Below are positions 6,563 through 60,536 of a stretch of 64,000 nt of DNA, piece by piece. This DNA comes from Candidatus Omnitrophota bacterium (GTDB taxonomy: Bacteria > Omnitrophota > Gorgyraeia > Gygaellales > Profunditerraquicolaceae). The number at the start of each line of letters is the position of its first letter. Position 1 is the stretch's first letter. The stretch is taken from positions 65,084 through 129,083 of the forward strand of contig CAWDSS010000016.1 of the NCBI GenBank assembly GCA_963805065.1, in the 5' to 3' direction. Made by a program: the position numbers and the translations under genes. The notes under the pieces are model-generated. The model did no database searches and was not told where the DNA came from. It worked only from the letters and a program-made list of their open reading frames with translations.

Positions 6563-6946
6563 ATGGCAACCGCAAAAATGGACGAATTGATTAAGTCAAT
6601 AGAGGGCATGACCGTATTAGAGCTCTCGGATTTAGTCAAGGCACTGGAAGAGAAGTTCGGTGTCAAGGCAAATATGCCGATGATGGCAATGCCCGCAGGC
6701 GCAGCAGCAGGCGCAGCTCCCGCAGCCGAAGAAAAAACTACTTTCACAGTAGTATTAGCAAGCGCAGGGGCAAATAAAATAGCCGTAATCAAGGAAGTCA
6801 GGACCATGACGAGCTTGGGCTTAAAAGAAGCCAAGGACCTGGTTGACGCAGCTCCCAAGCCGGTAAAAGAAGGCGTAGCAAAAGAAGAAGCCGAAGAAAT
6901 GAAGAAGAAACTTGAAGCAGCCGGCGCAACAGTTGAATTAAAATAA
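6563..6946 (+). CDS. rplL: 50S ribosomal protein L7/L12
   Basis: [34 protein letters not shown]...[10 protein letters not shown]...[19 protein letters not shown] at 6551-6555. Confidence 0.95.
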
Positions 6947-6986: not shown

Positions 6987-14470
<7,484 letters not shown>

Positions 14471-23134: not shown

Positions 23135-23326
23135 ATGAAAATAAGTGAATTAAAGAATTTGTCAAAAGAGGAATTGCTGCAGAAAGAAAAAACCTTAAAA
23201 GAAGAGATTTTTAAGCTTAACATACAGCGCTATAGCGGGAGGGTGGAAAAGCCGCATATGTTTAGCTTACTTAAAAAAGATATTGCAAGGATAAAAACGC
23301 TACTTAACGAAAAGAAAGACAAATAA
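23135..23326 (+). CDS. rpmC: 50S ribosomal protein L29
   Basis: 63 aa: [23 protein letters not shown]. Conserved position. Confidence 0.9.
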
Positions 23327-23327
23327 A

Positions 23328-23609
23328 ATGGGTAAAAGAAAAGAATTCATCGGCACGGTAATCAGCGATAAGATGCAGAAGACAGTAATTGTGAGAATTA
23401 TGCGTCTTAGTAAACATGCCAAATACGGCAAAATAGTAAAGAAATACAATAAATTCAAGGCGCATGATGAATAAGGCAGCGCTAAATCAGGCGATACAGT
23501 GCGCATAGTAGAAACCAGGCCCTTATCAAAAGATAAGCGTTTTAGAGTTGTAGGAATAATCAAGAAATCCGAGACCCCGCACTTAACATTGAAAGAGGAA
23601 GTTCAATGA
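23328..23609 (+). pseudogene. rpsQ: 30S ribosomal protein S17 with an in-frame TAA at 23472-23474
   Basis: [48 protein letters not shown], then TAA, then [29 protein letters not shown], all in one frame. The TGA overlaps the rplN ATG. Confidence 0.85.
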
Positions 23610-23974
23610 TTCAACTAAGATCAATATTAGACGTGGCTGATAATACAGGGGCAAAACGCGTGTCCATGATTGGCGTATTAGGCAGGAAGGGCAAGAGTTT
23701 TGCCGAGGTGGGAGACGTAATCAACGTAAATGTCAAAGAATCTTCTCCCTTGGCCGTGGTCAAAAAGGGAGAAGTTGGTCGCGCCGTGGTAGTCAGGACT
23801 AAAGATGCGATTAGACGGCCTGACGGTTCGATATTAAGGTTTGACCGCAATGCAATTGTTTTCATTGATGCTCAGTCAAATCCCAGGGGCACCAGGGTAT
23901 TCGGCCCGGTTGCGCGCGAATTAAGAGAAAAGAATTTTACCAAAATAATATCCCTGGCTCCAGAGGTGATTTAA
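23606..23974 (+). CDS. rplN: 50S ribosomal protein L14
   Basis: [17 protein letters not shown]...[14 protein letters not shown]. Confidence 0.95.
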
Positions 23975-24285
23975 TGCAAAAAATCAGAAAAGGCGATACA
24001 GTCCAAATAACCAAAGGAAAAGACAAAGGCAAGAAAGGCAGGGTCCTAACTTTACTTGCGCCAGGTACGCATGCTTTGATCGAAGGGCTTAATATGGTCA
24101 AGAAACATAAACGCCAGACACGCCAGGATCAGCAGGGCGGCATTGTTTCAATTGAGATGCCGGTGAGCATGGCGAATTTGCAATTGGTTTGCAAGAGTTG
24201 TAACCGTCCCACGCGCGTAGGTTTTTCAGTTTCCCAAGACGGCTTGAAATCCAGAATTTGTAAGAGTTGTAAAGAGGCTATATAA
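23974..24285 (+). CDS. rplX: 50S ribosomal protein L24
   Basis: [21 protein letters not shown] (KOW motif). Confidence 0.9.
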
Positions 24286-24286
24286 C

Positions 24287-24838
24287 ATGATACCCAGATT
24301 ACAAGAGAGATACAGGAATGAAATTACCCCCAAGATGATGGAAACTTTTGGGCTAAAGAATAAAATGGCTGTGCCTCGCTTGGAAAAAATAGTGGTAAAT
24401 ATGGGCGTGGGCGAGGGTGCGCAGGATATTAAAATCCTGGAAAAATCCATGGATGAAATGGCTGCAATAACCGGCCAGAAACCGATTATGCGGCGGGCTA
24501 AAAAAGCCATTGCTAATTTTAAAATCCGGCAGAATCATCCGGTCGGTTGTAAAGTTACGCTTAGAAGGGCAATGATGTATGAATTCATGGATAGGCTCCT
24601 GAATGTCACGCTTCCGCGTATCCGCGACTTTAGGGGAGTATCTAGCGATGCGTTTGACCACGCAGGCAATTATACCTTAGGCCTTTCAGAGCAAACGATA
24701 TTTCCTGAAATAGAATACGACAGAATAACACGCACCCAGGGCATGGATATTACCTTTGTAATAAAGAACGCAAAAACCAAAGAACAGGCACGGGAATTAT
24801 TGAAACTATTCGGCATGCCTTTTCAAATGAATACATAA
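24287..24838 (+). CDS. rplE: 50S ribosomal protein L5
   Basis: [14 protein letters not shown]...AIANFKIRQ...RDFRG. Confidence 0.95.
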
Positions 24839-25063
24839 GTTATGGAGCTGTCAATTAGCTTAGAGCGACATAACTTATCGTATGAATTTGACCCCGCACT
24901 AATTTTTTAGATGTCTTGGAATTATAGATGCGGGGTAAGCGCGAGATATGCCTTTATATATAAGTTGAGTCTTTTTTAAAAATTAGTGCGGGGTTTAATT
25001 CGCACAGCGGCTTATGTCGGTAGCCTATGAAGCAATACTCCATAAGTCGCGTGCTCATAAAAC
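24839..25063. repeat. 225-bp nested-palindrome insertion filling the rplE-rpsZ spacer (ACCCCGCAC-cored element)
   Basis: Perfect 17-bp arms: ACCCCGCACTAATTTTT (24891-24907) pairs with AAAAATTAGTGCGGGGT (24978-24994). Outer pairs: TTATGGAG (24840-47)/CTCCATAA (25038-45) and CGACATAA (24866-73)/TTATGTCG (25012-19). A third core copy, ATGCGGGGT, sits at 24928-36. Confidence 0.8.
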
Positions 25064-25249
25064 ATGGCTAAAAATTCACAAATCGCAAGATGGAAAAGGC
25101 CGGCTAAGTTTTCTTCGCGTAAATATAACCGCTGCCATATCTGCGGCAGGTCCGGCGGATTCCTAAGAAGATTTCAGCTTTGCCGCCTATGCTTTCGGGA
25201 ACTGGCTTGGCAGGGTTTAATACCCGGAGTCAGGAAAGCAAGCTGGTAG
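25064..25249 (+). CDS. rpsZ: 30S ribosomal protein S14, zinc-binding type Z
   Basis: 61 aa: [23 protein letters not shown]. Confidence 0.9.
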
Positions 25250-25266
25250 ACAAATAAGGGGAAAAT

Positions 25267-25662
25267 ATGTCTAGAACAGATTTAATTGCCGATGCATTCA
25301 CTATGATACGCAATGCCATTATGGCAAAAAAAGAAAATGTCGATGTCCCGGCTTCAAACGCATTAAAGTCAATCGTAGAAATATTAAAAAAAGAAAATTA
25401 CATCGAGAATTTCAAATTAATAGAAGATAAGAAACAGGGTGTAATACGCATTTATCTAAAATATATTGCCCATAAACCGGCAATCAGGAATATTAAGCGC
25501 GTGTCCCGTCCGGGGCTAAGAGTATATGTCAAGCGTAAAAAAGTCCCTTCCATATTAAGAGGAAGGGGTTTGGCAATAGTGTCTACCTCTAAGGGATTGA
25601 AGACTGATACAGAAGCAAGAGAGTTAGGGTTAGGCGGAGAAATAATAGGATACATTTGGTAG
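25267..25662 (+). CDS. rpsH: 30S ribosomal protein S8
   Basis: DLIADAFTMIRNA...VSTSKGLKTD. Confidence 0.95.
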   Translation: MSRTDLIADAFTMIRNAIMAKKENVDVPASNALKSIVEILKKENYIENFKLIEDKKQGVIRIYLKYIAHKPAIRNIKRVSRPGLRVYVKRKKVPSILRGRGLAIVSTSKGLKTDTEARELGLGGEIIGYIW

Positions 25663-25678
25663 TAGGTAGCGATAAGAG

Positions 25679-25746
25679 ACCCCACGCCTAAACGCTCGAA
25701 AATTTCAGAATACAGTAAATGAAATTTTCTTCGCAGGCTTTGGGGT
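25679..25746 (+). repeat. Composite hairpin in the unusually long (116-nt) rpsH-rplF spacer
   Basis: Inner 10-bp stem: GAAAATTTCA (25698-25707) pairs with TGAAATTTTC (25720-25729). Outer arms: ACCCCACGCC (25679-88) and GGCTTTGGGGT (25736-46). Confidence 0.6.
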
Positions 25747-25778
25747 TAATTAAGAAACAAGTAATAGAGGTTAATTAA

Positions 25779-26324
25779 ATGTCACGAATCGGAAAAAAAC
25801 CCATTGAAATTCCAAAGGATGTAAAGGTAGAAGCCAAAGACGGCCAGGTTTTTGTGGAAGGGCCCAAAGGAAAACTTTCTCGCGTTGTGTCTTACAGGAT
25901 TTGCGTAGAAATAAAGGACAATAGGGTAACCCTGACGCGTTCGGGAGATACAAAGTTAGATAAGTCGCTGCATGGCCTTTACAGGGCTTTGATCGCAGGT
26001 ATGATTAAAGGAGTTACCGAAGGTTACAAGAAGGAAATGGAAATTATCGGCGTGGGTTTTAAGGCTGTAGTGCAAGGTAATAAGTTAAATATGCAGTTGG
26101 GTTTTTCGCATCCGGTAAATTTCTCTATCCCGCAGGGTATTAAAATAGAAACTCCCAAGCCTACACAAATAGTAATCAGCGGCATTGACAAAGAAACAGT
26201 CGGTGAGGTAGCAGCTGAGATCCGCGCAATTTATCCTCCTGAGCCGTATAAAGGCAAAGGTATACGTTTTGCCGGAGAATATATAAAGAAAAAAGTGGGC
26301 AAAGCTCAGGCAACCACTAAATAG
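25779..26324 (+). CDS. rplF: 50S ribosomal protein L6
   Basis: MSRIGKKPIEIPKDVKV...PEPYKGKGIRF. Confidence 0.95.
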   Translation: MSRIGKKPIEIPKDVKVEAKDGQVFVEGPKGKLSRVVSYRICVEIKDNRVTLTRSGDTKLDKSLHGLYRALIAGMIKGVTEGYKKEMEIIGVGFKAVVQGNKLNMQLGFSHPVNFSIPQGIKIETPKPTQIVISGIDKETVGEVAAEIRAIYPPEPYKGKGIRFAGEYIKKKVGKAQATTK

Positions 26325-26332
26325 GTCTGAAT

Positions 26333-26692
26333 ATGAACACAAAAGAACATCAGAGATTAAAGAGGCATCGGACAATCAGGCTGCGAATGCAAGGTGATGC
26401 CCAAAGGCCGCGCCTGATTATTAAACGCAGCCTCAGGAATCTTGCAGCCGAGGTCATAGATGATACTGCGAATAAAACATTATTTGCCCTTTCCACGCAG
26501 AATAAGGAAGTAAAACAGAAGGTTGCCTTTGCGGGAAACGTGAAATCAGCGGAACTTTTCGGGCAAATTTTTTCCCAAAAGGCAAAAGAAAAAGGAATCT
26601 TGAAAGTTGTTTTTGACCGTGCCGGTTATTTGTACCACGGCAGGATTAAGGCTTTTGCGGAGGCCTTAAGAAAAGGCGGATTGGAGTTCTAA
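26333..26692 (+). CDS. rplR: 50S ribosomal protein L18
   Basis: [20 protein letters not shown]...[20 protein letters not shown]. Confidence 0.95.
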
Positions 26693-26696
26693 AAAT

Positions 26697-27182
26697 ATGC
26701 GCGAATTGAATATTGAGCAACAGCCGGAATTGATTGAAAAGATAATTACCATTAACCGCGTATGCAAAGTAACTAAAGGTGGTAAAAAACTTCACTTTAG
26801 TGTTTTAGTAGTGGTAGGAGATACCAAGGGCAGAGTGGGTTTTGCGTTGGATAAAGCCAATGAAGTCGCAGATGCGATAAGAAAGTCTTTAACTAAGGCA
26901 AAGAAGTCACTGTTTAAGGTAACTATGGAGGGTTCGACTATCCCGCATGAAATAATCGGCCATTACGGGGCAGCAAAAGTGCTTTTGAAACCGGCTTCAG
27001 AAGGGACGGGAGTTATTGCGGCAGGACCCGTAAGAGCAATATGTGAGGCAGCCGGCATTAAGGATATATTGACGAAATGCCTTAAGTCAAACAACCCCAT
27101 AAATGTTATCAAGGCTACAGTTGACGGTCTTAAGAACTTGAAGGTAAACGAGGAAACAGTTAATGCAACCGAACAAAAATAA
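26697..27182 (+). CDS. rpsE: 30S ribosomal protein S5
   Basis: [24 protein letters not shown]...[12 protein letters not shown]. Confidence 0.95.
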
Positions 27183-27708
27183 AAATATTGAAAAGATTGA
27201 GCCTGTTGCCAGGTCTATCCGTAAGCTCAAGCGAGTTGCCGCTAAACTAGAGGTACGCCAAACCATCGGGCTTAATAATTTAAGAGCACCAGTGGGCGCG
27301 CATAAAAAGAAAAAGCTTTTAGGGAGAGGGTCTGGATCAGGGCATGGTAAAACTTCTACCAGAGGAAGCAAGGGCCAGACTTCGCGTGCAGGAAGGCATT
27401 TTTACCTGGGATTTGAAGGCGGCCAATCCCCGTTAGTCCGCAGGATCCCTAAGAGAGGTTTCACTAACAGGTTTAAGAAGGAATATCAAATCGTAAATTT
27501 AGACCAGCTTAATAACGTAAAGGAAGCTACAATTAACCCGGAATTGTTAGAGCAAAAAGGGTTGATTAAAGATAAGGCGAAGCTGGTTAAAATACTCGGG
27601 GACGGAAAGCTAAAAAATCCCATTAACGTTTCAGCGCACGCTTTTTCTAAAAAGGCCTCCCAGGAAATTAAAAATTCAGGCGGGACGGTAGAAGTCATAA
27701 ATGTTTAG
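27163..27708 (+). CDS. rplO: 50S ribosomal protein L15 (the ORF has a ~35-aa N-terminal extension; true start uncertain)
   Basis: [32 protein letters not shown]...[18 protein letters not shown]. It directly follows rpsE; no L30 gene lies between them. Confidence 0.85.
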
Positions 27709-29050
27709 CGCACTATATAACGCATTCAAGATTCCTGATTTAAAGAGGCGGTTGCTCATAACCGGCGCACTTATTGCGGTTTACCGCGTGGGCTGCTATA
27801 TACCAACCCCGGGTATCGACGGAACAGCATTAGCCGAATTCTTTAACCGTATTGCCAAGACCCAGGGCGGTACCATCTTTGGCATAATCAACATGTTTTC
27901 CGGCGGCGCTATGGAACGGCTGACTATTTTTGCCTTGGGTATTATGCCCTATATTTCCTCTTCAATTATCCTGCAGCTTTTAACTGCTGTTATACCGGCA
28001 TTAGAAAAGATGGCCAAAGAAGGCAAGGCAGGATACGAAAGGATAAATCAATATACGCGTTACGGAACAGTTGCTCTTTCTTTAATACAGTCATTTTTTA
28101 TTGCCCTGTGGCTGGAAAACCCTGCTCGTTTTGAGGGTTTGAAGATCGTTATGTATCCCGGATGGGGATTTAGGATCCTTACGGTCTTAACTTTGACTAC
28201 CGGCACAATATTCATCATGTGGCTGGGTGAACAGATTCAGGAAAGAGGTATAGGTAACGGTATATCTTTGGTTATTACCGCAGGTATTATCTCAAGGATT
28301 CCTGCAGCACTGCACCAGCTATTCATTTTGGTTTCTCCTTTTGCAGCGTCAAAGCGACAGATACAGCCATTTACTTTATTGATTATGGCAATATTGCTTG
28401 TGGTAGTGGTGTTTGCGGTTATTATGATAACTCAAGGGCAAAGAAAGATACCCGTGCAATATGCGCGAAGGATCGTAGGCAGAAAGATTTACGGTGGGCA
28501 ATCAACTTACATCCCTTTAAAAGTAGATACATCAGGAGTCATCGCCATAATTTTTGCCCAGTCAATTATTCTTTTCCCGGCGACAATGGCCTCATTTATC
28601 CCTAACCCGGCTTTCCAAAGGTTAGCGCAGAGCTTAATCAGGGGGCATTTACTTTATACGCTTATCTATGCGTTGTTGATTATTTTCTTCTGTTATTTTT
28701 ATACGGCTATTGTTTTTAACCCGCTGGATTTATCGGAAAACATGAAAAAATACGGCGGATTCATCCCGGGAATAAGGCCGGGTACTCCTACTGCCGAATT
28801 CCTGGATTTTGTAATGACCAGGATTACTTTGGCCGGAGCTGCCTTTATTGCGGTTATTGCTATATTGCCTGATTTTATAATGGCTACGCTTAAAGTCCCG
28901 TATTTGGTGGCTTCGTTCTTCGGCGGGACAGGCATCTTGATTATCATCGGCGTTATGCTGGATACTTTGAAACAAGTCGAGTCGCATTTGCTTACGCATC
29001 ATTACGAAGGTTTTATCAGGGGCGGCGGGCATATTAGAGGCAGGAGATAA
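27701..29050 (+). CDS. secY: Preprotein translocase subunit SecY
   Basis: 449 aa, 10-TM pattern: GIMPYISSSIILQLL, WLGEQIQERGIGNGISL. Confidence 0.95.
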   Translation: MFSALYNAFKIPDLKRRLLITGALIAVYRVGCYIPTPGIDGTALAEFFNRIAKTQGGTIFGIINMFSGGAMERLTIFALGIMPYISSSIILQLLTAVIPALEKMAKEGKAGYERINQYTRYGTVALSLIQSFFIALWLENPARFEGLKIVMYPGWGFRILTVLTLTTGTIFIMWLGEQIQERGIGNGISLVITAGIISRIPAALHQLFILVSPFAASKRQIQPFTLLIMAILLVVVVFAVIMITQGQRKIPVQYARRIVGRKIYGGQSTYIPLKVDTSGVIAIIFAQSIILFPATMASFIPNPAFQRLAQSLIRGHLLYTLIYALLIIFFCYFYTAIVFNPLDLSENMKKYGGFIPGIRPGTPTAEFLDFVMTRITLAGAAFIAVIAILPDFIMATLKVPYLVASFFGGTGILIIIGVMLDTLKQVESHLLTHHYEGFIRGGGHIRGRR

Positions 29051-29150
29051 AGTAAGGTAAAACGTAAAAGTAAAAAGGCAAAACTGCAACGTAAAACTAA
29101 AAACGTTTTAAGTTAAAGTTTTGACTTTTGGCTTTTGACTTTTGAGTTTA
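29051..29150. repeat. Heptamer-array palindrome: ~8 A-rich heptamers (TAAAACG/TAAAAGT type), then 4 T-rich heptamers (CTTTTGA/CTTTTGG)
   Basis: Read directly. The centre is the perfect palindrome AAAACGTTTT (29100-29109). T-rich units lie at 29118-29145. Confidence 0.8.
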
Positions 29151-29161
29151 TCGGATTTTTT

Positions 29162-29827
29162 ATGAACATTATACTATTAGGTCCTCCGGGAGCGGGCAAA
29201 GGCACTCAATCAGTAAGGTTAGCGCAGGAGTTAGGTTTAGCTCATATTGCCACAGGAGATTTGTTACGTAAGAACGTAAGAGAAGGCACTCAGCTTGGCA
29301 AACAGGCAAAAGATTTCATGGATAAAGGCCTGCTCGTCCCCGACGAACTGGTCGCCAAAATGCTTAAAGAAAGGTTTGATAACCCCGATGTAAAAAATGG
29401 GTTTATCCTTGACGGTTATCCGCGTAACATCAATCAGGCAAAGACGCTGGATAGCTTATTGAGGTCCGCTAATTTGACGATAGATTTGGTAGTTTATTTA
29501 GATTCAAGCGAAAAGGTTATTCTAACGCGGCTTACCGGGCGTTTAGTCTGCAGTAATTGCGGCGCAAATTTTCATATCAAAAATATGCCGCCTAAAGTTG
29601 AAGGCACCTGCGATAAGTGCGGGGGTGCGCTTTATCAAAGGGCAGATGATTTAGAAGAAACAGTAAGGCAACGTCTTAAGGTTTATAAGCAGGAAACCGC
29701 TTCGCTGATAAAATACTACGAATCTGAAAACAAGCTGCATCGTTTATCAGCGGACGGTGATGCAAGCGAGGTCTTGAAACAAATTATTCAGCTGGCTAAC
29801 AATAGAAATGATTCCCTTAAAGTCTGA
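29162..29827 (+). CDS. adk: Adenylate kinase (zinc-lid type)
   Basis: MNIILLGPPGAGKGTQ...CSNCGANFH...CDKCGG. The upstream part of ORF 29135 is translated repeat. Confidence 0.9.
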   Translation: MNIILLGPPGAGKGTQSVRLAQELGLAHIATGDLLRKNVREGTQLGKQAKDFMDKGLLVPDELVAKMLKERFDNPDVKNGFILDGYPRNINQAKTLDSLLRSANLTIDLVVYLDSSEKVILTRLTGRLVCSNCGANFHIKNMPPKVEGTCDKCGGALYQRADDLEETVRQRLKVYKQETASLIKYYESENKLHRLSADGDASEVLKQIIQLANNRNDSLKV

Positions 29828-30551
29828 AGAAGACTTAGAGATGCTAAGAAAATCAGGTAAGATTTTGGCTGGAGTGCTTAAGAAGTTGGAAGGATATGTT
29901 TTGCCGGGGATTACAACCGAACAGATTAATATTCTGGCTGAAAAATTCCTGGCTAAAGAAAATGCAAAACCGGCTTTTAAGGGTTACAGGGGTTTTCCTG
30001 CCAGTATCTGCACTTCAATAAACGCAGAAATAGTGCATGGAATTCCCGGCCCGGTAAAGATTAAAGAGGGAGATATTATTAGTTTGGATTTCGGAGTAAA
30101 TTATAAGGGTTATTTTTCCGATGCGGCAGTCACCGTTGCGGTGGGTAAGATTGATGCCGGGAAGAAAAAACTTATTGAAGTAACCAAAGAAGCGCTATCA
30201 ATGGGAATAAAACAAGCACGCGTTGATAATCATTTGTCGGATATATCAGCCAGCATCCAAGGTCACGTAGAAAAGAACGGATTTTCTGTTGTCAGGCAAT
30301 TTGTGGGGCACGGCATAGGCAAGGAATTGCATGAGGAGCCGGAGATTCCCAACTTCGGGAAACCTCACGAAGGGTGTGTTTTAAGAAAGGGAATGGTTTT
30401 GGCAATTGAGCCTATGGTGAACATGGGCACATGGGAGGCGGAAATTCTGGATAATGGCTGGACTGCAGTGACAAAAGACAGGCTGCCTTCGGCGCATTTT
30501 GAGCATACAGTGGCAATTACCGATGATGGGGCTGAAATTTTAACAAACTAA
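29808..30551 (+). CDS. map: Methionine aminopeptidase type I
   Basis: [50 protein letters not shown]. Confidence 0.9.
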
Positions 30552-30559
30552 TAAAAAAT

Positions 30560-30778
30560 ATGGCCAAAGAAGAGCTGATTGAAACAGAAGGAAAAATTAT
30601 AGAGGCTTTACCTAATGCAATGTTTAAAGTAGAACTGGAGAATGGACACGTAGTATTAGCGCACGTTTCTGGAAAAATGCGCATGAATTTTATAAGGATA
30701 TTACCGGGAGATAAAGTAAAGTTGGAACTTTCTCCCTATGATTTAACGAGAGGAAGAATTACCTTTAGGGTAAAATAA
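30560..30778 (+). CDS. infA: Translation initiation factor IF-1
   Basis: [41 protein letters not shown]... Confidence 0.95.
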
Positions 30779-30790
30779 ACGAGAGTGTGA

Positions 30791-30870
30791 ACCCCGCACC
30801 TTCTAGAAATTTAGTTATTTATAGAATAATAGATGTGCAGGGTTGGTGAATAGGAAAGAAGGTGCGGGGT
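30791..30870 (+). promoter_or_regulatory. 14-bp perfect inverted repeat whose 3' arm covers the rpmJ SD region and the first two bases of its GTG start
   Basis: ACCCCGCACCTTCT (30791-30804) pairs with AGAAGGTGCGGGGT (30857-30870). 52-nt AT-rich loop. The rpmJ GTG is at 30869. Confidence 0.6.
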
Positions 30871-30982
30871 GAAAGTAAAAGCATCGGTGAGAAAAATCTG
30901 CGATAAGTGCAAAGTTATTAAAAGAAGAGGTGTGGTGAGAGTAATTTGCATTAATCCTAAACATAAGCAGAGACAAGGTTAA
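30869..30982 (+). CDS. rpmJ: 50S ribosomal protein L36 (GTG start; below the ORF-track size cutoff)
   Basis: [37 protein letters not shown], then TAA. Canonical position between infA and rpsM. Confidence 0.9.
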
Positions 30983-30994
30983 TAGGAGAGATAT

Positions 30995-31412
<418 letters not shown>

Positions 31413-33532: not shown

Positions 33533-34096
33533 ATGAGACATGGTAAGAAAAGATATCAATTAAACCGTTTCACCAGCTGGCATAAAAGCACCATAAATAG
33601 CCTGGCGCGAAATCTGCTAATCCATCAGAGGATACAAACTACTTTAACCAGGGCTAAAGCAGTAAGGCCATTGGCAGAAAAGCTCATTTCGCTTGCCAAG
33701 GAAAACTCACTGGCTGCAAAAAGGCAAGCTGTCAAGGTCTTAGGCGAACATAAGTTAGTCAGTATCTTGTTCAATGATATCGGGCCGCGTTTTAAGGATA
33801 GGGCTAGCGGTTTTACCAGGATTATACATTTGGGTGTCAGGCGGGGAGATGACGCAACATTGGCAATTTTAGAGCTTACTGAAATAAAAGAAAAGAAAAA
33901 GCCGGTTCACAAGAAAGAAAAAGAAACAAAGACGCAAGAAGACGTTGCTCAGGAAATGCCGCCAGTAGAAGAAAAAAAGCCGCAGATTCCTGAGGCTCCC
34001 AAAGAGAAAGAAAAACCTCCAGTTACCAAAAAACCCACTAAGAAGTTCCTGGGTGGCATAAGAGGCATATTCAAGAAACAAAGAGACTCCTTGTAA
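33533..34096 (+). CDS. rplQ: 50S ribosomal protein L17 with a ~65-aa K/E/P-rich C-terminal tail
   Basis: MRHGKKRYQLNRFTSWHKS...RGDDATLAILEL, then KEKKKPVHKKEKETK... Confidence 0.9.
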   Translation: MRHGKKRYQLNRFTSWHKSTINSLARNLLIHQRIQTTLTRAKAVRPLAEKLISLAKENSLAAKRQAVKVLGEHKLVSILFNDIGPRFKDRASGFTRIIHLGVRRGDDATLAILELTEIKEKKKPVHKKEKETKTQEDVAQEMPPVEEKKPQIPEAPKEKEKPPVTKKPTKKFLGGIRGIFKKQRDSL

Positions 34097-34102
34097 AATA
34101 GA

Positions 34103-34154
34103 GGGGACGTTTCTATTTTTTATGAGAAAAACTATATAAAATAGAAACGTCCCC
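34103..34154 (+). terminator. Intrinsic-terminator-like hairpin, copy 2 of the GGGGACGTTTCTATTTT element
   Basis: GGGGACGTTTCTATTTT (34103-19) pairs with AAAATAGAAACGTCCCC (34138-54). 18-nt loop, then ATTATTTTTTT. Starts 7 nt after the rplQ stop. Confidence 0.7.
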
Positions 34155-34185
34155 ATTATTTTTTTGGTAATTGGTTATTTTATTT

Positions 34186-54223: not shown

Positions 54224-54730
54224 ATGTTAGCAATAATTTTGGTTTTTATGGGAATATTATTAAGATTTGCACCGCACGCGCCAAATTTCACGCCAGTTGC
54301 AGCGATTGCATTATTCGGCGGGGCATATTTAAATAAAAGAAGTTCTCTCATCGTCCCATTGGCCCTTATGATAATCAGCGATTATTTATTGGGGTTACAT
54401 AATGTGGTGTTTTTTACCTGGGGAGGGTTTGTCTTGGTTGCCTTGTTAGGTACGCGCCTTAAGGGCAATAAAGGCGTTGCCAGGACCATAACCTTTTCTT
54501 TGGCATCAGCAATTATATTTTATATCGTGTCAAACTTTGGCGTGTGGTTAATGGGTTGGTATCCTCCCACCTTAAATGGCCTTATTGATTGTTATGCCTT
54601 AGCAATTCCTTTCTTTAGGACCTTTACGCTGGCAACATTGATATATACTGCCGTATTTTTCGGCATTTATGAATTAGCCGCGCATTTTGTTAAACAGACA
54701 AAGTTCGCGCATGCTCTTTTAACAAAATAA
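54224..54730 (+). CDS. Small polytopic membrane protein of unknown function (a link to B12 uptake is suggested by adjacency only)
   Basis: 168 aa, ~5-6 hydrophobic helices, PNFTPVAAIALFGGAY motif, AGGAGG SD. Confidence 0.5.
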   Translation: MLAIILVFMGILLRFAPHAPNFTPVAAIALFGGAYLNKRSSLIVPLALMIISDYLLGLHNVVFFTWGGFVLVALLGTRLKGNKGVARTITFSLASAIIFYIVSNFGVWLMGWYPPTLNGLIDCYALAIPFFRTFTLATLIYTAVFFGIYELAAHFVKQTKFAHALLTK

Positions 54731-54740
54731 TTTTTTGTCT

Positions 54741-54885
54741 TATATGGACTAGGGAAGGCCGTAAAAGCGGCCACAGTCCCGCTGCTGTATAGAGGGACGA
54801 AATTCCGCAATAAGCCACTGGTGTTTTAGCCGGGAAGGCGCGGAAGAGTAGGATGATCTCTTGAGTCAGAAGACCTAGGCATATA
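54741..54885 (+). promoter_or_regulatory. Cobalamin (B12) riboswitch aptamer
   Basis: P1 TATATG/CATATA; AGGGAAGGCCGTAAAAGCGGCCACAGTCCCGCTGCTGT; GCCACTG; GGGAAGGC; B12-box-like GAGTCAGAAGACCTAGGC. Confidence 0.85.
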
Positions 54886-54938
54886 ATCAAAAATATAATA
54901 ACCATTTGGTCCGTGGACAGGCCAAGGGCTAAGAGGGT

Positions 54939-54976
54939 AACCCTTGATGTCAATTGTGATATCAAGGGTTTTTTAT
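54939..54976 (+). terminator. Intrinsic terminator acting as the riboswitch expression platform
   Basis: AACCCTTGAT (54939-48) pairs with ATCAAGGGTT (54961-70), followed by TTTTATTTT. Confidence 0.8.
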
Positions 54977-55000
54977 TTTAACGTCCGGAATGGAGAAAAG

Positions 55001-57070
55001 ATGGGAAAGAGTATTCAGGTTGTAAATAGTTCATTTTTATTAGCATTTTTTATATCTATAACAGTTCCTGCTTTTGCTGATTCGCCAGAGGTGGATTTAG
55101 ATAAGATCGTTGTGACTCCCTATCGCTATGAAGAGAAATTAGGCAACACAGCGTCAAGTGTTACGATAATTACTCCTGGAGACATAGCTAGCTCTAATGC
55201 TCGCAATGTAGTCGGTATGCTTAGGTCAATACCTGGGGTTACAGTACGGGATACTCTTGGAAACGGCACACAAGCAGTTGTGGACATAGCAGGATTTGGA
55301 GAACAGGCGCCACTTAACGTATTGGTATTAGTTGACGGCAGGCGGGCAAACAATGTTGATTTAAGCGGTGTGGACTGGAGTCAAATCCCGCTTGACGAAG
55401 TGGAGCGTATCGAGGTTGTTCGCGGAGGCTCTGCTGCGGTGCTATATGGCGATAATGCATCTAGCGGTGTAATTAATATTATTACCAAAAAGGGCACCGG
55501 CAAACCAAAAATAGACATAGAAACTGAATACGGCAGCTATGATATGAACAAAGAAAAACTATCTTTAGGCGGCAAAGCTAACGATAAACTTTCTTATTGG
55601 TTCAGCCTGGGACGCGATTCTACCAATGGTTATCGCAATAACAACTTTGATAAAAATAGCGACTTTGCTTCTAAAATCAATTATGATTTTAGTGATATAC
55701 TGTCCGCACATTTTGACTCTGGGTTTCATGCTTGGACTTACGGCATGCCCGGGGCATTGTTTCAAAGTGATATAGACCAGCACGGTAGGACGTTTGCCCG
55801 ATTCGGCAATGACCATGCTAATGGTAAGGACTATTATTTTGTTTTTGGACCAAAAGTCCAATTTCCAGGATTAGGAAATCTCGATTTAGATTTTAATTAC
55901 CGTCAGAATGATGTTGATTCATATTATCTGACCTCAGGGCACGATACTTACAGGAACAGTATCGAAACTTTTGGGGCAACGCCGAAGTATACATTAGGCA
56001 ATAGTATTCTTAACCATGATAATAAATTCATTGCGGGGTTAGATTTTTACCGGTCATTATATAGCTCAAAGACATATCTTATCTCTAATGACAACGCGTT
56101 GGATCAATATACGGATATTCACAAGGATTCATTAGGAAGCTACCTGCAAGATGAGTTTTCAATCTTTAAACAGTTAGTTTTAGTAGGCGGCTACCGCCAT
56201 GAATTTGCAGAGTACACATTCGCTTATCACAATAATGTTTATCCCTTATATTATCCCGATCAAGATAGTAAAGTAAAATTTAATATGGATTCTTTTAACA
56301 GCGGCCTTACGTATACTTATAAAGATGATTCCAATCTTTTTTTAAATGTGAGCAGAAGCTTTCGTTTTCCCGAGGTAGATGAGTTTACCTATTTTGATGC
56401 AACTTCTTATCAAACGCTGCTTAATACCGGCCTTAAGCCACAATCTTCGATAGATTACCAGGTTGGTTTACGGCATAAATTTTCTGACCGTTTTAGGGTG
56501 AGCTTATCATTATTTAGAATGAATGTTAAAAATGAGTTGTATCTTAATGCCACGGATACCTGGGATGGTTCTGAGTGGAATAGTAAGAATGAAAATTATG
56601 ACAGGACTGTTCATGAAGGCCTAGAATCATCCCTGGATGCAAAGCTTAACGATTGGGTCGAATTCCTGGGAAATTATACTTTTACCAATGCTTATTTTGA
56701 CGGCGGACAATATAGCGGGAATGAAATACCGTTAGTGCCTAAGCATAAAGTAAGCGTTGGGTTAAAATTTGCATTACCAATGAATTTAGCTTTTAATATT
56801 ACCGGTAATTATGTCGGCTCTAGATATTATCTGAATGATCAGGCAAACGCTTATTCCCGGCTTAACGGGTATATGGATACCGATACAAACTTGTCCTGGC
56901 GCTATAAAGATTGGATGGTTACTTTCGGTATTAATAATCTCTTTAATAAACAATACTCAGAGATTGCCGGAGTATTACAAGGATTTTCCCCCGGGCACGC
57001 TGTGGGTGAAGAATTTTATTATCCAAACCCAGGGAGAAATTTTATACTGAAGGTTGACTACGCCTTTTAA
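55001..57070 (+). CDS. TonB-dependent outer-membrane receptor (BtuB-like, downstream of the B12 riboswitch)
   Basis: Signal peptide MGKSIQVVNSSFLLAFFISITVPAFA. TonB box/plug: DKIVVTPYR...VTIITPGDI...IPGVTV. C-terminal ...NFILKVDYAF. Confidence 0.85.
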   Translation: MGKSIQVVNSSFLLAFFISITVPAFADSPEVDLDKIVVTPYRYEEKLGNTASSVTIITPGDIASSNARNVVGMLRSIPGVTVRDTLGNGTQAVVDIAGFGEQAPLNVLVLVDGRRANNVDLSGVDWSQIPLDEVERIEVVRGGSAAVLYGDNASSGVINIITKKGTGKPKIDIETEYGSYDMNKEKLSLGGKANDKLSYWFSLGRDSTNGYRNNNFDKNSDFASKINYDFSDILSAHFDSGFHAWTYGMPGALFQSDIDQHGRTFARFGNDHANGKDYYFVFGPKVQFPGLGNLDLDFNYRQNDVDSYYLTSGHDTYRNSIETFGATPKYTLGNSILNHDNKFIAGLDFYRSLYSSKTYLISNDNALDQYTDIHKDSLGSYLQDEFSIFKQLVLVGGYRHEFAEYTFAYHNNVYPLYYPDQDSKVKFNMDSFNSGLTYTYKDDSNLFLNVSRSFRFPEVDEFTYFDATSYQTLLNTGLKPQSSIDYQVGLRHKFSDRFRVSLSLFRMNVKNELYLNATDTWDGSEWNSKNENYDRTVHEGLESSLDAKLNDWVEFLGNYTFTNAYFDGGQYSGNEIPLVPKHKVSVGLKFALPMNLAFNITGNYVGSRYYLNDQANAYSRLNGYMDTDTNLSWRYKDWMVTFGINNLFNKQYSEIAGVLQGFSPGHAVGEEFYYPNPGRNFILKVDYAF

Positions 57071-57085
57071 AATTCTGTCTTGAAA

Positions 57086-57796
57086 ATGATTGCAGGCTGT
57101 GTTAATCTAGACTCTATGTTTAGGGATAAGCTTTTTAGGAATGCAATTCTAGCCTCTTTAATTGCCCACAGCCTGCTTTTATTTCAAAACCCGCATTTGA
57201 ATTTTCTGGTTGCGCCAAAAAAAGACAATAATATTGAGGTAACTTACATAAAGCCGAATTTAATGGAAAAAACAGGCGTAAGGCTAAGTGAGGCCAGTAA
57301 AGAGCCATTCTTAAGAATGGATCAGAAAATAGTAACGGCCAAAAATGTCCCGCCGCCTTTTATTGACAGGGAAGCAATTTTTAAAGGCGCTAAGATGCTT
57401 CCTCCCGAGCAGCCCGACATTAATAAGCCTACCCTCATGAGCCAGGAGGCCATTCTTTTTAAGAAGAAGATTACCATGCCTGCTTTGGATCTGGATAAAA
57501 TAAATAACCCCTCTTACATAAGCTATTACCAGATTGTGCGTGAAAAAATAAAACGCGCAGCTTACAGGAATTACTCGCACCAGGATACAGGAGAGGTTTA
57601 TCTTTCTTTCATTGTATCAAACGACGGCTTTCTAAAAGATGCGCGCCTGGTAGAACAGAAATCTTCTGTCAATCCGTATCTTAGGCAAATTGCCTTAAGA
57701 AGCCTTAAGGATGCATCTCCTTTCCCGAATTTCCCCAAAAACCTGGATTATCCCAGTCTTTCCTTTAACGTGGTCATTTCCTTTGAAATTGAATAA
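57086..57796 (+). CDS. tonB: TonB-family energy transducer (C-terminal TonB domain)
   Basis: N-terminal TM AILASLIAHSLLLF. C-terminal GEVYLSFIVSNDGFLKDARLVEQKSSVNPYLRQIALRSLKDASPFPNFP. Start uncertain (57080, 57086 or 57116). Confidence 0.7.
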   Translation: MIAGCVNLDSMFRDKLFRNAILASLIAHSLLLFQNPHLNFLVAPKKDNNIEVTYIKPNLMEKTGVRLSEASKEPFLRMDQKIVTAKNVPPPFIDREAIFKGAKMLPPEQPDINKPTLMSQEAILFKKKITMPALDLDKINNPSYISYYQIVREKIKRAAYRNYSHQDTGEVYLSFIVSNDGFLKDARLVEQKSSVNPYLRQIALRSLKDASPFPNFPKNLDYPSLSFNVVISFEIE

Positions 57797-57803
57797 TTAA
57801 TTC

Positions 57804-57848
57804 GCGCATATAACTTACGTCGCATTTTATGCTCCGTAAGTTATGCGC
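57804..57848 (+). repeat. Hairpin after tonB, related to a sub-motif of the 24.9-kb palindrome
   Basis: GCGCATATAACTTACG (57804-19) pairs with CGTAAGTTATGCGC (57835-48) with a 2-nt bulge. Compare GCGACATAACTTATCG at 24865-80. Confidence 0.6.
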
Positions 57849-57863
57849 TCATTAAAACTCAAG

Positions 57864-60274: not shown

Positions 60275-60430
60275 ATGATTGATAAAGAATTGCTGGAAAT
60301 ACTTGCCTGTCCGGCTTGCAAAGGGGATGTGGAATTAAAGGATAAAAAAATAGTTTGCAAAGCTTGCGGCAAGAAATACCCCATTAAAGATGGCGTTCCA
60401 ATAATGCTAGTAGATGAAGCGGAGGAATAA
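60275..60430 (+). CDS. Trm112-family zinc-ribbon protein (51 aa; below the ORF-track cutoff)
   Basis: MIDKELLEILACPACKGDVELKDKKIVCKACGKKYPIKDGVPIMLVDEAEE. AAGGAG lies upstream. Confidence 0.8.
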   Translation: MIDKELLEILACPACKGDVELKDKKIVCKACGKKYPIKDGVPIMLVDEAEE

Positions 60431-60536
60431 AAGTAAAAAGGAAAAAGCCAAAAGTAAAAAGTACAAGTAAAAAGTCAAAACTTTTAAATTTTAACTTTAA
60501 CTTTTACCTTTTTGCTTTTAACTTTTGACTTTCAGA
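60431..60536. repeat. Heptamer-array palindrome: ~7 A-rich units (AAGTAAA type), then ~7 T-rich units (TTTTAAC/TTTTGAC type)
   Basis: Read directly. Shares CTTTTGACTTT with the 29.1-kb array. Confidence 0.8.

Follow-up and report, generated by a model that had tools for sequence, protein, structure and literature searches.

The + strand of the window analyzed here (the whole 64,000-nt stretch of contig CAWDSS010000016.1, from a Candidatus Omnitrophota bacterium) carries the S10-spc-alpha ribosomal protein cluster. Within this cluster, rplE (24287-24838, stop codon TAA at 24836-38) is separated from rpsZ (25064-25249, encoding a protein of 61 aa of the Zn-ribbon type) by a palindromic element that fills a gap of 225 nt (24839-25063). 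The top named relatives of the L5 protein of the window are Candidatus Omnitrophica/Omnitrophota. A preliminary description, made from the letters of the DNA, had presented the gap as a multi-layer nested palindrome and proposed either a mobile repeat or a structured RNA.

All the inverted repeats listed in that description are present in the gap: an outer pair (TTATGGAG/CTCCATAA), a middle pair (CGACATAA/TTATGTCG) and a perfect 17-nt inner pair (24891-24907/24978-24994), with a third core copy, TGCGGGGT, inside it (24929-24936). Their nesting is only one of two arrangements. The preferred (minimum free energy, MFE) fold consists of three adjacent hairpins, H1 (24831-24883), H2 (24884-25000) and H3 (25001-25054), and the ‘outer’ and ‘middle’ pairs are the same arms in an alternative long-range pairing. 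The sense RNA of the spacer is predicted to fold at -82.7 kcal/mol, compared with -55.8 +/- 4.7 kcal/mol in dinucleotide shuffles (z = -5.77), a value equalled by none of 200 shuffles. The 9-mer ACCCCGCAC or its complement, said to exceed chance, does so with five occurrences in the window against 0.23 expected, a number reached in 0 of 100 shuffles. Its reported confinement to the ribosomal block holds for every real copy in the window. It does not hold for the family, which extends beyond ribosomal operons, and the occurrence at 23574 was discarded as a chance match within the rpsQ coding sequence (..SETPHLT.., where the relative L082 has ..ATAH..). The independent Logan assembly L001 (ERR10755942) is identical to the window over the entire element, and the element is therefore not an assembly artefact.

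The genes rplE and rpsZ were described as normally lying a few nucleotides apart, and this is indeed their arrangement in about 14 other Omnitrophota loci (including L206 and L207), in which the spacer measures 2-25 nt. Six of these loci are close relatives, with L5 identities of 91-92% (L082, L083, L084, L085), 91% (L206) and 88% (L207) and spacers of 2-20 nt. In about 70 loci of Firmicutes and others, the approximate gap was taken from the end of the L5 match to the start of rpsZ, thus counting in the stop and the final codons of L5; most values fall at 19-45 nt, and none exceeds 83 nt. The junction of the closest relatives reads ..ATGCCTTTTGGCGTTAAGGAATAAAAATGGCT.., with the Shine-Dalgarno (SD) sequence of rpsZ, AAGGAA, located within the rplE tail; in L206, tail and spacer have a different sequence and are equally short.

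The corresponding junction of the window reads ..ATGCCTTTT up to the rplE stop, CAAATGAATACATAAG...GTGCTCATAAAAC across the spacer and ATGGCT.. from the rpsZ start. Alignment to the empty sites of L082 and L083 places the beginning of the element at about 24824, inside rplE, and its span at about 24824-25061. The last four codons of L5 and its stop (CAA ATG AAT ACA TAA; QMNT) are element sequence, and both the native L5 tail and the SD of rpsZ have been replaced by the element. The start codon of rpsZ lies in an unpaired A-rich tail right after H3, without an SD. The window copy is old and mutated: the first TAA of the element is now CAA, and L5 therefore ends at the second element-encoded TAA. 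When the junctions of the operon are tabulated by locus, long spacers occur at different junctions in different genomes, which is the signature of insertion and not of a conserved leader.

A family of modular palindromes

Each of the three hairpins represents a repeat family, and the order H1-H2-H3 is itself conserved. The modules were searched in about 0.9 Mb of related Omnitrophota contigs. Full three-module copies were found in L094, L095, L113, L132, L149 and L183, and copies with a degenerate H3 in L144 and L203; all these composites fold as three adjacent hairpins. Their consensus consists of TAA followed by GTGAGGACATAAGTTATGGAGC-loop-GCGACATAACTTATnTGTCCGAACTTA (H1), yCCCCGC-variable hairpin-GCGGGGr (H2) and TTAATTCGCGCAnATAACTTACG-loop-CCGTAAGTTATGCGCTCAT (H3), and then TAA(A)ATG. 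Homologues of H1 occur in all eight loci (L094, L095, L113, L149, L183, L203, L144 and L132); its canonical left end, TAA followed by GTGAGGACATAAGTTATGGAGC..GCGACATAACTTAT..GTCCGAACTTA, is degenerate in the window (CAAATGAATACATAAGTTATGGAGC...). H1 approximates the reverse complement of H3, both being inverted versions of one hairpin of about 55 nt, and the composite is therefore bounded by terminal inverted repeats, each about 25 nt long (TAAGTGAGGACATAAGTTATGGAGC compared with the right end in reverse complement, TTAATGAGCGCATAACTTACGGAAC).

The central hairpin H2 differs wholly in sequence between copies and is always a near-perfect palindrome, usually with a clamp CCCC(G)C/G(C)GGGG. In the window, the H2 loop contains a decoy, an internal copy of the 3′ arm (TGCGGGGT, 24929-24936) that could pair with the 5′ arm instead; the predicted pairing of the 5′ arm with the loop reaches -18.2 kcal/mol, compared with -8.9 kcal/mol in shuffled loops (p = 0.006). 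We should note that H2 is set in a recurrent frame (..GAACTTA, hairpin, TTAATTCGC..), with TTA on both sides in seven of nine copies (composites of L094, L095, L132, L144, L149, L183 and L203). H3 shows compensatory double changes at 8 of its 13 stem pairs in an alignment of 19 sequences, and in the window its end lies 3-5 nt before the ATG of rpsZ (25064). A start codon on the same strand follows within 15 nt in about 19 of 28 H3 units, often without an SD.

Canonical copies extend from the TAA stop of the upstream gene, which is the first triplet of the element, to the next ATG, 0-5 nt past the terminal ..CTCATTAA. In those checked (L094, L095, L149), the upstream open reading frame (ORF) ends on this first TAA. 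Canonical three-module copies carry TAA at both ends, and these triplets may belong to the repeat itself. The composites occupy unrelated positions: one precedes a hisF-like gene (L094), one a hisH-like gene (L149) and one lies between rpsZ and rpsH (L095), and the genes found downstream of composites are hisF-, hisH-, purH-, ptsH- and ftsW-like. We considered a ribosome ‘relay’ through mini-ORFs of the composite and rejected it, the ORFs that start from H1 ending at different places in each copy as read by eye.

Partial forms comprise H3 alone (L083 between rplN and rplX; window 57797-57855), H2+H3 dyads (L161, L201, L003, L004), H1+H2 (L109) and arrays (L132, L183); no H1-H3 junction without H2 was found among the contigs searched. 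The solo H3 of the window is a second, near-consensus copy that directly follows the TAA stop of the ORF at 57080-57796. Another solo hairpin, in the spacer between rpsH and rplF, shares homology with the H2 units found ahead of H3 modules in L132, and the ends of the stem covary; this spacer measures only 13-27 nt in L082, L002, L005 and L122. The coordinates of these modules and elements of the window are given in Table 1.

Table 1. Palindromic modules and solo elements in the window, with the evidence for each.
Feature	Position	Strand	Evidence
H1, left terminal hairpin	24824..24889	+	nhmmer H1 profile match 24825-24889, E = 5e-13; MFE hairpin 24831-24883
H2, central long hairpin	24890..24994	+	perfect 17-bp stem 24891-24907/24978-24994; clamp ACCCCGC/GCGGGGT
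H3, right terminal hairpin	24995..25061	+	TTAATTCGCACA..CTTATG..loop..CATAAG..TGCTCAT; nhmmer H3 profile E = 1e-10
Solo H2-type hairpin in the 116-nt rpsH-rplF spacer	25678..25747	+	GACCCCACGCC..CGAAAATTTC..GAAATTTTC..GGCTTTGGGGTT, then TTAATT; fold z = -3.15
B-type solo element, infA-rpmJ	30787..30873	+	perfect 14-bp stem; fold z = -4.2; covariance model R1 76.4 bits, E = 1e-17
Solo H3-type module	57797..57855	+	TTAATTCGCGCATATAACTTACG..CCGTAAGTTATGCGCTCATTAA; nhmmer E = 7.6e-16; inverted repeat I12

The 225-nt spacer is thus very probably a worn copy of an undescribed, non-coding mosaic palindromic mobile repeat that is specific to Omnitrophota and resembles MITEs (miniature inverted-repeat transposable elements), bacterial interspersed mosaic elements (BIMEs) and BOX elements. 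The proposal of a MITE-like element or one resembling repetitive extragenic palindromes (REPs) is borne out by modules at many non-homologous junctions, by their absence from this junction in close relatives and by expanded spacers at varying junctions.

B-type elements at start codons

Together, the 9-mers at 30791 and 30862 form the arms of a single, separate element, located between infA and rpmJ, which belongs to a second, related family (B-type). This copy is 82 nt long (30790-30871) and follows the old GTG start codon (30787-89). Its 5′ arm (30791-30804) pairs with a 3′ arm, AGAAGGTGCGGGGT (30857-30870), that contains an SD, and the new GTG of rpmJ is at 30869-71. From the old start, a mini-ORF of 20 codons (VNPAPSRNLVIYRIIDVQGW) runs to a TGA at 30847-49 and ends 22 nt before the new GTG. 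The copy has all three features of the family, i.e., RTGAA...TGAA flanks, a 3′ arm with SD and GTG, and a mini-ORF. Homologues occupy the same junction in L082, L004, L107/L122 and L200, and others are found at other junctions.

A degenerate pattern built from the window copy and its relatives in L082 and L083 matched at least 120 metagenomic stretches, with 0 matches in viral contigs, and 119 distinct copies were used for statistics. The search pattern fixed the arms, and the arm statistics are for that reason partly circular; those on flanks, loop and frame are not. The terminal inverted repeats read CCCCGCMCYTYCT / AGRARGKGCGGGG. The left flank is the old start codon (A in 83% or G in 15%, T in 97% and G in 92% of the 119 copies) and the right flank is AA (97-98%). 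Comparison of an empty site in L082 (CATGAAGCC) with its filled counterpart in L083 (CATGAA, the insert CCCCGC..GCGGGGTGAA, then GCC) reveals a clean 4-bp TGAA duplication, and the same holds for the rplP-rpmC junction, empty in L082 and filled in L092. TGAA at ‘start codon + AA’ is thus duplicated in two filled/empty pairs. The B-type copies before rplE in L083 and before rpmC in L092 agree at all 83 nt; they occupy two loci of one metagenome, and their identity indicates a presumably recent transposition. An alternative definition, in which the element begins at an upstream stop codon, was rejected: the supposed stop is the TGA of overlapping stop and start codons (ATGA), and what is conserved on this side is the old start codon.

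The element closes with GTG, and in nearly all copies this triplet is where the real downstream gene starts. This GTG and the SD (AGAAGG/AGGAAGG) lie in the 3′ arm and are paired with an anti-SD-like 5′ arm, with almost perfect covariation at the degenerate positions of the stem. Read in frame with the old ATG, 67 of 117 copies are free of stops, compared with 0 and 6 for the other two frames. Element lengths are biased to 2 mod 3 (61/24/13), and in that class the mini-ORFs (MNPAPS.../MNPALP...) end at a TGA that overlaps the new GTG (GTGA) in 48 out of 59 cases. Where the length is divisible by three (mostly 54-57 nt), the element forms an in-frame N-terminal extension in 12 of 26 copies. Long copies carry a decoy arm in the loop (71 of 89), with a predicted 5′-arm pairing of -16.3 kcal/mol compared with -7.8 kcal/mol in shuffled loops, and the sense strand folds better than the antisense strand in 91 of 117 copies. 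The sequence logic of the family strongly suggests translational coupling. An extreme load on essential genes is seen in L004 (JAKLQX010000059.1, 365-8510), an Omnitrophota metagenome-assembled genome in which 10 kb of the ribosomal protein operon hold four B-type cassettes along with two modules of the H3 type.

The B-type covariance model R1 scores the window H2 at 19.0 bits on the + strand (E = 0.018) and at 28.9 bits on the - strand (E = 4e-5). We regard H2 as a relative of the B-type family and not as a member, because it has the 9-bp core and the decoy arm in common with that family but neither its SD and GTG nor flanking TGAA.

Origin, function and known counterparts

We infer the mobility of these elements from target duplication, identical copies and presence/absence polymorphism. 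They show some features of MITEs, namely terminal inverted repeats, a distribution over multiple non-homologous loci and polymorphism between relatives, as well as some of REPs and BIMEs, with short palindromic units and mosaics of alternating orientation in transcribed extragenic space (dyads, and arrays in L132 and L183). The preliminary description had made its proposal depend on further copies and on conserved structure. Both exist, with at least 120 related copies and stems that covary in B-type elements and at 8 of 13 pairs in H3. The target-site duplication that it suggested looking for is clean for the related B-type; at the window site itself the insertion is not clean.

Several observations weigh against a mobile repeat. 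Apart from the insertion, the window differs from the empty sites by a loss of 12 nt and several substitutions, and the TAA...TAA on either side may stem from target duplication or may simply belong to the terminal repeats. The loci compared provide no clean filled/empty pair of near-identical genomes for the three-module element, and no H1-H3 junction without H2 was seen that would support a nested-insertion origin of H2. A search of the 0.9 Mb of related loci found no autonomous element or transposase with matching ends and no long element bounded by the arms, which is a weak negative, and the B-type arm statistics carry the circularity mentioned above. The strict sense orientation and the exact stop-to-start placement could reflect function and not a tolerated selfish insertion. 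As to the fold, the sense RNA of the window composite is clearly favored over the antisense (-83.6 versus -66.3), and this advantage is not consistent among the other composites. Sense versus antisense folding, which we tried as proof of RNA-level selection, holds for B-type elements and is inconsistent for composites, so that RNA-level selection on the composite is no more than a possibility.

It is possible that the elements are domesticated intercistronic RNA devices, i.e., modules spread by mobility and kept for an mRNA function. This reading overlaps with that of a mobile repeat and adds a claim of selection. The B-type would act as a two-state hairpin that tunes coupling, its 5′ arm pairing either with the 3′ arm that holds SD and start or with the decoy, and composites would set boundaries of mRNA processing or stability. 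Near-exclusive sense orientation and exact placement at stop and start codons are consistent with such a role, as is the location of at least 92% of B-type copies at start codons, given that TGAA is common elsewhere. In addition, conservation of the decoy arm extends to 71 of 89 copies and to the window H2, the mini-ORF is kept open with a 3-nt periodicity of lengths, folding favors the sense strand in 91 of 117 B-type copies and does so strongly in the composite of the window, and the infA-rpmJ junction is occupied in five different lineages. However, all such traits are also expected from survivorship, with insertions persisting only where the downstream gene survives. At these junctions, close relatives manage without the element, composites have no consistent strand asymmetry, and the proposal draws on sequence data throughout.

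REP- or REPIN-type elements moved on single-stranded hairpins by a REP-associated tyrosine transposase (RAYT, an IS200/IS605-like Y1 transposase) would replace MITEs moved by a DDE transposase. We consider this origin unlikely. The short hairpin units, which occur singly, as dyads and in alternating BIME-like arrays (L132, L183), would agree with it, and no insertion sequence with matching ends was found in the 0.9 Mb of related loci. Y1 transposition yields no direct target duplication, and the clean 4-bp direct duplication of the B-type argues against this mechanism for that family. An IS5-like DDE enzyme would be compatible with T-rich duplications of 3-4 bp. No RAYT gene was seen in the loci examined, in which no search aimed at RAYT was made.

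A dedicated autoregulatory leader or riboswitch-like RNA for the ribosomal protein gene rpsZ (and rpmJ) is very improbable. Both hairpins are strongly structured, ACCCCGCAC hairpins precede rpsZ and rpmJ, which both encode Cys-rich Zn-ribbon ribosomal proteins, and all real copies in the window are located in the ribosomal protein block. However, none of the relatives examined has the element before rpsZ, its modules are also found ahead of his, pur, pts, glycosyltransferase and many other genes, and the same B-type element is found before rplE in L083 and before rpmC in L092. The structured RNA of the preliminary description, taken as a dedicated regulator, is thus not sustained. The suggested Rfam/Infernal comparison gave no match either: no Rfam 15 family, ribosomal protein leaders, ribozymes and introns included, matches the window spacer at the gathering score, and nothing appears in the spacer at E <= 10 (region 23300-31200 scanned). 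In six loci that hold canonical copies, none of the module positions has a match at E <= 0.1, and the sole permissive match, to a snoRNA, lies elsewhere in L132 and is due to chance.

An internal intrinsic terminator or attenuator, for which the G+C-rich clamp of H2 followed by TTTAATT could speak, is scarcely credible with an H2 loop of about 70 nt, no T-run, essential genes further down the same operon and no + strand terminator-like site called in the spacer by a promoter/terminator scan (counts at or below shuffle expectation), and neither is an assembly artefact, given the identical sequence of the independent assembly.

For the mobile repeat that we favor, the following course of events can be envisaged. 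The element would be co-transcribed with the spc operon and form three stable hairpins on the mRNA, which would part the termination of rplE from the initiation of rpsZ. With its AUG in the unpaired A-rich tail, S14 would have to be initiated without an SD. The hairpins probably serve as structural or decay barriers or as processing sites, a role also proposed for REP and BOX elements. In the B-type, native signals would drive translation of the mini-ORF, and its ribosome would melt the stem and terminate at or near the new start. The gene start is presumably rebuilt by the element’s own SD and GTG, sequestered in the stem, such that the host gene would stay translationally coupled, and the decoy arm may offer an alternative open conformation. 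A more far-reaching proposal is conceivable and, in our view, doubtful: Omnitrophota may harbor a mobile cassette that seeks out start codons and rescues itself, and this cassette and its mosaic relatives may have become general parts of operons. The cassette would integrate at ‘RTG AA’, convert the old start into that of a mini-cistron and supply SD and GTG in a two-state decoy hairpin by which downstream translation would depend on upstream translation or be tuned by it, and composites would be kept as stop-to-start spacers for mRNA processing or decoupling.

Among known repeats, REPs or palindromic units (PUs) and BIMEs of enterobacteria were reportedly described by Gilson, Bachellier and Hofnung, with the link to RAYT said to come from Nunvar et al. 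They are short imperfect palindromes, single or in mosaics, in the transcribed extragenic space of operons and are thought to stabilize mRNA; according to Liang, Rudd and Deutscher in 2015, a REP within about 15 nt of a stop codon can reportedly affect translation. The elements described here are likewise imperfect palindromes, single or in alternating mosaics inside operons. In contrast, their units are longer (about 55 nt and 50-110 nt) and abut or contain stop and start codons, and the related B-type shows a target-site duplication. Mycobacterial interspersed repetitive units (MIRUs) of Mycobacterium tuberculosis are said to be intercistronic, with small ORFs that overlap the flanking stop and start and preserve coupling (Supply et al. 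1997). The B-type is similar in its intercistronic mini-ORF, which extends from the old ATG and overlaps the new start (GTGA in 48 of 59 copies of the 2-mod-3 class). MIRUs are, however, direct tandem repeats (variable-number tandem repeats) and have no SD-sequestering stem, decoy arm or TGAA duplication, whereas the B-type elements are palindromic hairpins and do not form tandem arrays.

Bacterial MITEs such as Correia/NEMIS of Neisseria, RUP of pneumococcus and ERIC have terminal inverted repeats, short target duplications and many copies and are co-transcribed; terminal inverted repeats, high copy number, presence/absence polymorphism and, for the B-type, a short target duplication are common to them and to the present elements. 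Rickettsia palindromic elements (RPEs) insert in frame into ORFs, as do the B-type copies of 54-57 nt that form N-terminal extensions. The three-hairpin mosaic with a hypervariable center is unlike both. To our knowledge, no MITE, RPE, REP, MIRU or BOX element targets ‘start codon + AA’ and brings along an SD and a GTG to rebuild the gene start.

The BOX elements of Streptococcus pneumoniae (boxA-boxB(n)-boxC) and the BOX-type elements of S. suis are also modular, with complementary ends and a variable middle, and they too are predicted to form stem-loops upon transcription, at gene ends and within operons. BOX elements are modular A-B-C repeats that form stems and often encode the stop codon of the upstream gene (36 coding sequences) (PMC3049150). 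They differ in that they belong to another phylum and have no evident sequence relationship to the elements of Omnitrophota. Moreover, their middle is a tandem array of fixed boxB units, whereas here it is a single hypervariable palindrome, and placement is far stricter here (from stop to start codon, in sense orientation). No shared sequence is evident with any of these systems (BOX, REP/BIME, MIRU, MITEs, RPE). Full-text literature searches returned no description of these Omnitrophota palindromes and no equivalent under MITEs or translational coupling.

On its own, the 225-nt element is a moderate curiosity; the context of its family, chiefly the start-codon cassette, adds interest. Even the most conserved operon junctions (rplE-rpsZ, infA-rpmJ) appear open to colonization by small mobile palindromes. 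The design of the B-type would explain how its insertions are survived, since the old start keeps translating the mini-ORF and a new SD and start are supplied, in effect a portable ‘translational coupling cassette’. For mobile-element biology this would be a MITE with an unusually precise functional target, and for translation biology the family would offer natural variants, in the hundreds, of a hairpin that sequesters an SD and has a decoy arm. In the annotation of uncultured phyla, it could account for unusual GTG starts, for proteins with N-terminal extensions or altered C-termini and for long ‘spacers’ in metagenome-assembled genomes of Omnitrophota.

Other palindromes and features of the window

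Further intercistronic palindrome families were noticed. A third family (GGGGACGTTTCTATTTT/AAAATAGAAACGTCCCC) occurs in the window at 937-1007 and 34095-34162 and in L082 at 10421-10480. One of the window copies follows rplQ at the operon end and is terminator-like in look, and the L082 copies lie between rpmJ and rpsM, where the window spacer is 12 nt. A fourth family consists of long A-rich/T-rich palindromes (AAAAGTAAAAAG...CTTTTGACTTTT), found in the window at 29060-29149 (secY-adk) and 60428-60532, in L004 at 9966-10070 and in L154 at 6731-6839. An additional hairpin family (GCACCCCGCGC..GCGCGGGTG) fills the rpsZ-rpsH spacer of L083 (1840-1906) and L004 (2400-2529) and is found again in L114 (9441-9471).

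An ORF of 86 aa with a GIY-YIG domain lies between rpsQ and rplN, with stop/start overlaps, in L082 (3157-3417) and L084 (212-472) and is lacking in the window and in L085. A link between this ORF and the element was rejected, since no hairpin modules flank the ORF and the window is without it; it is apparently a separate insertion polymorphism. In the window, rpsQ (S17, 23328-23608) is interrupted by an in-frame TAA at 23472-23474 (..KAHDE*GSAKSGD..), at which L082 has AAA (Lys); past this codon the frame is intact up to a stop that overlaps the start of rplN. A sequencing or consensus error could explain this TAA, as could readthrough or a nonsense mutation of recent origin. Among the L5 proteins, P0002 (from an ENA contig of 1934 nt) is a 307-aa ‘L5’ with residues ~1-124 duplicated internally, and probably stems from a misassembled or chimeric contig rather than from a real fusion. 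Finally, a cobalamin riboswitch (RF00174, 80.8 bits) is located at 54720-54896, upstream of an ORF of 708 aa (54944-57070).

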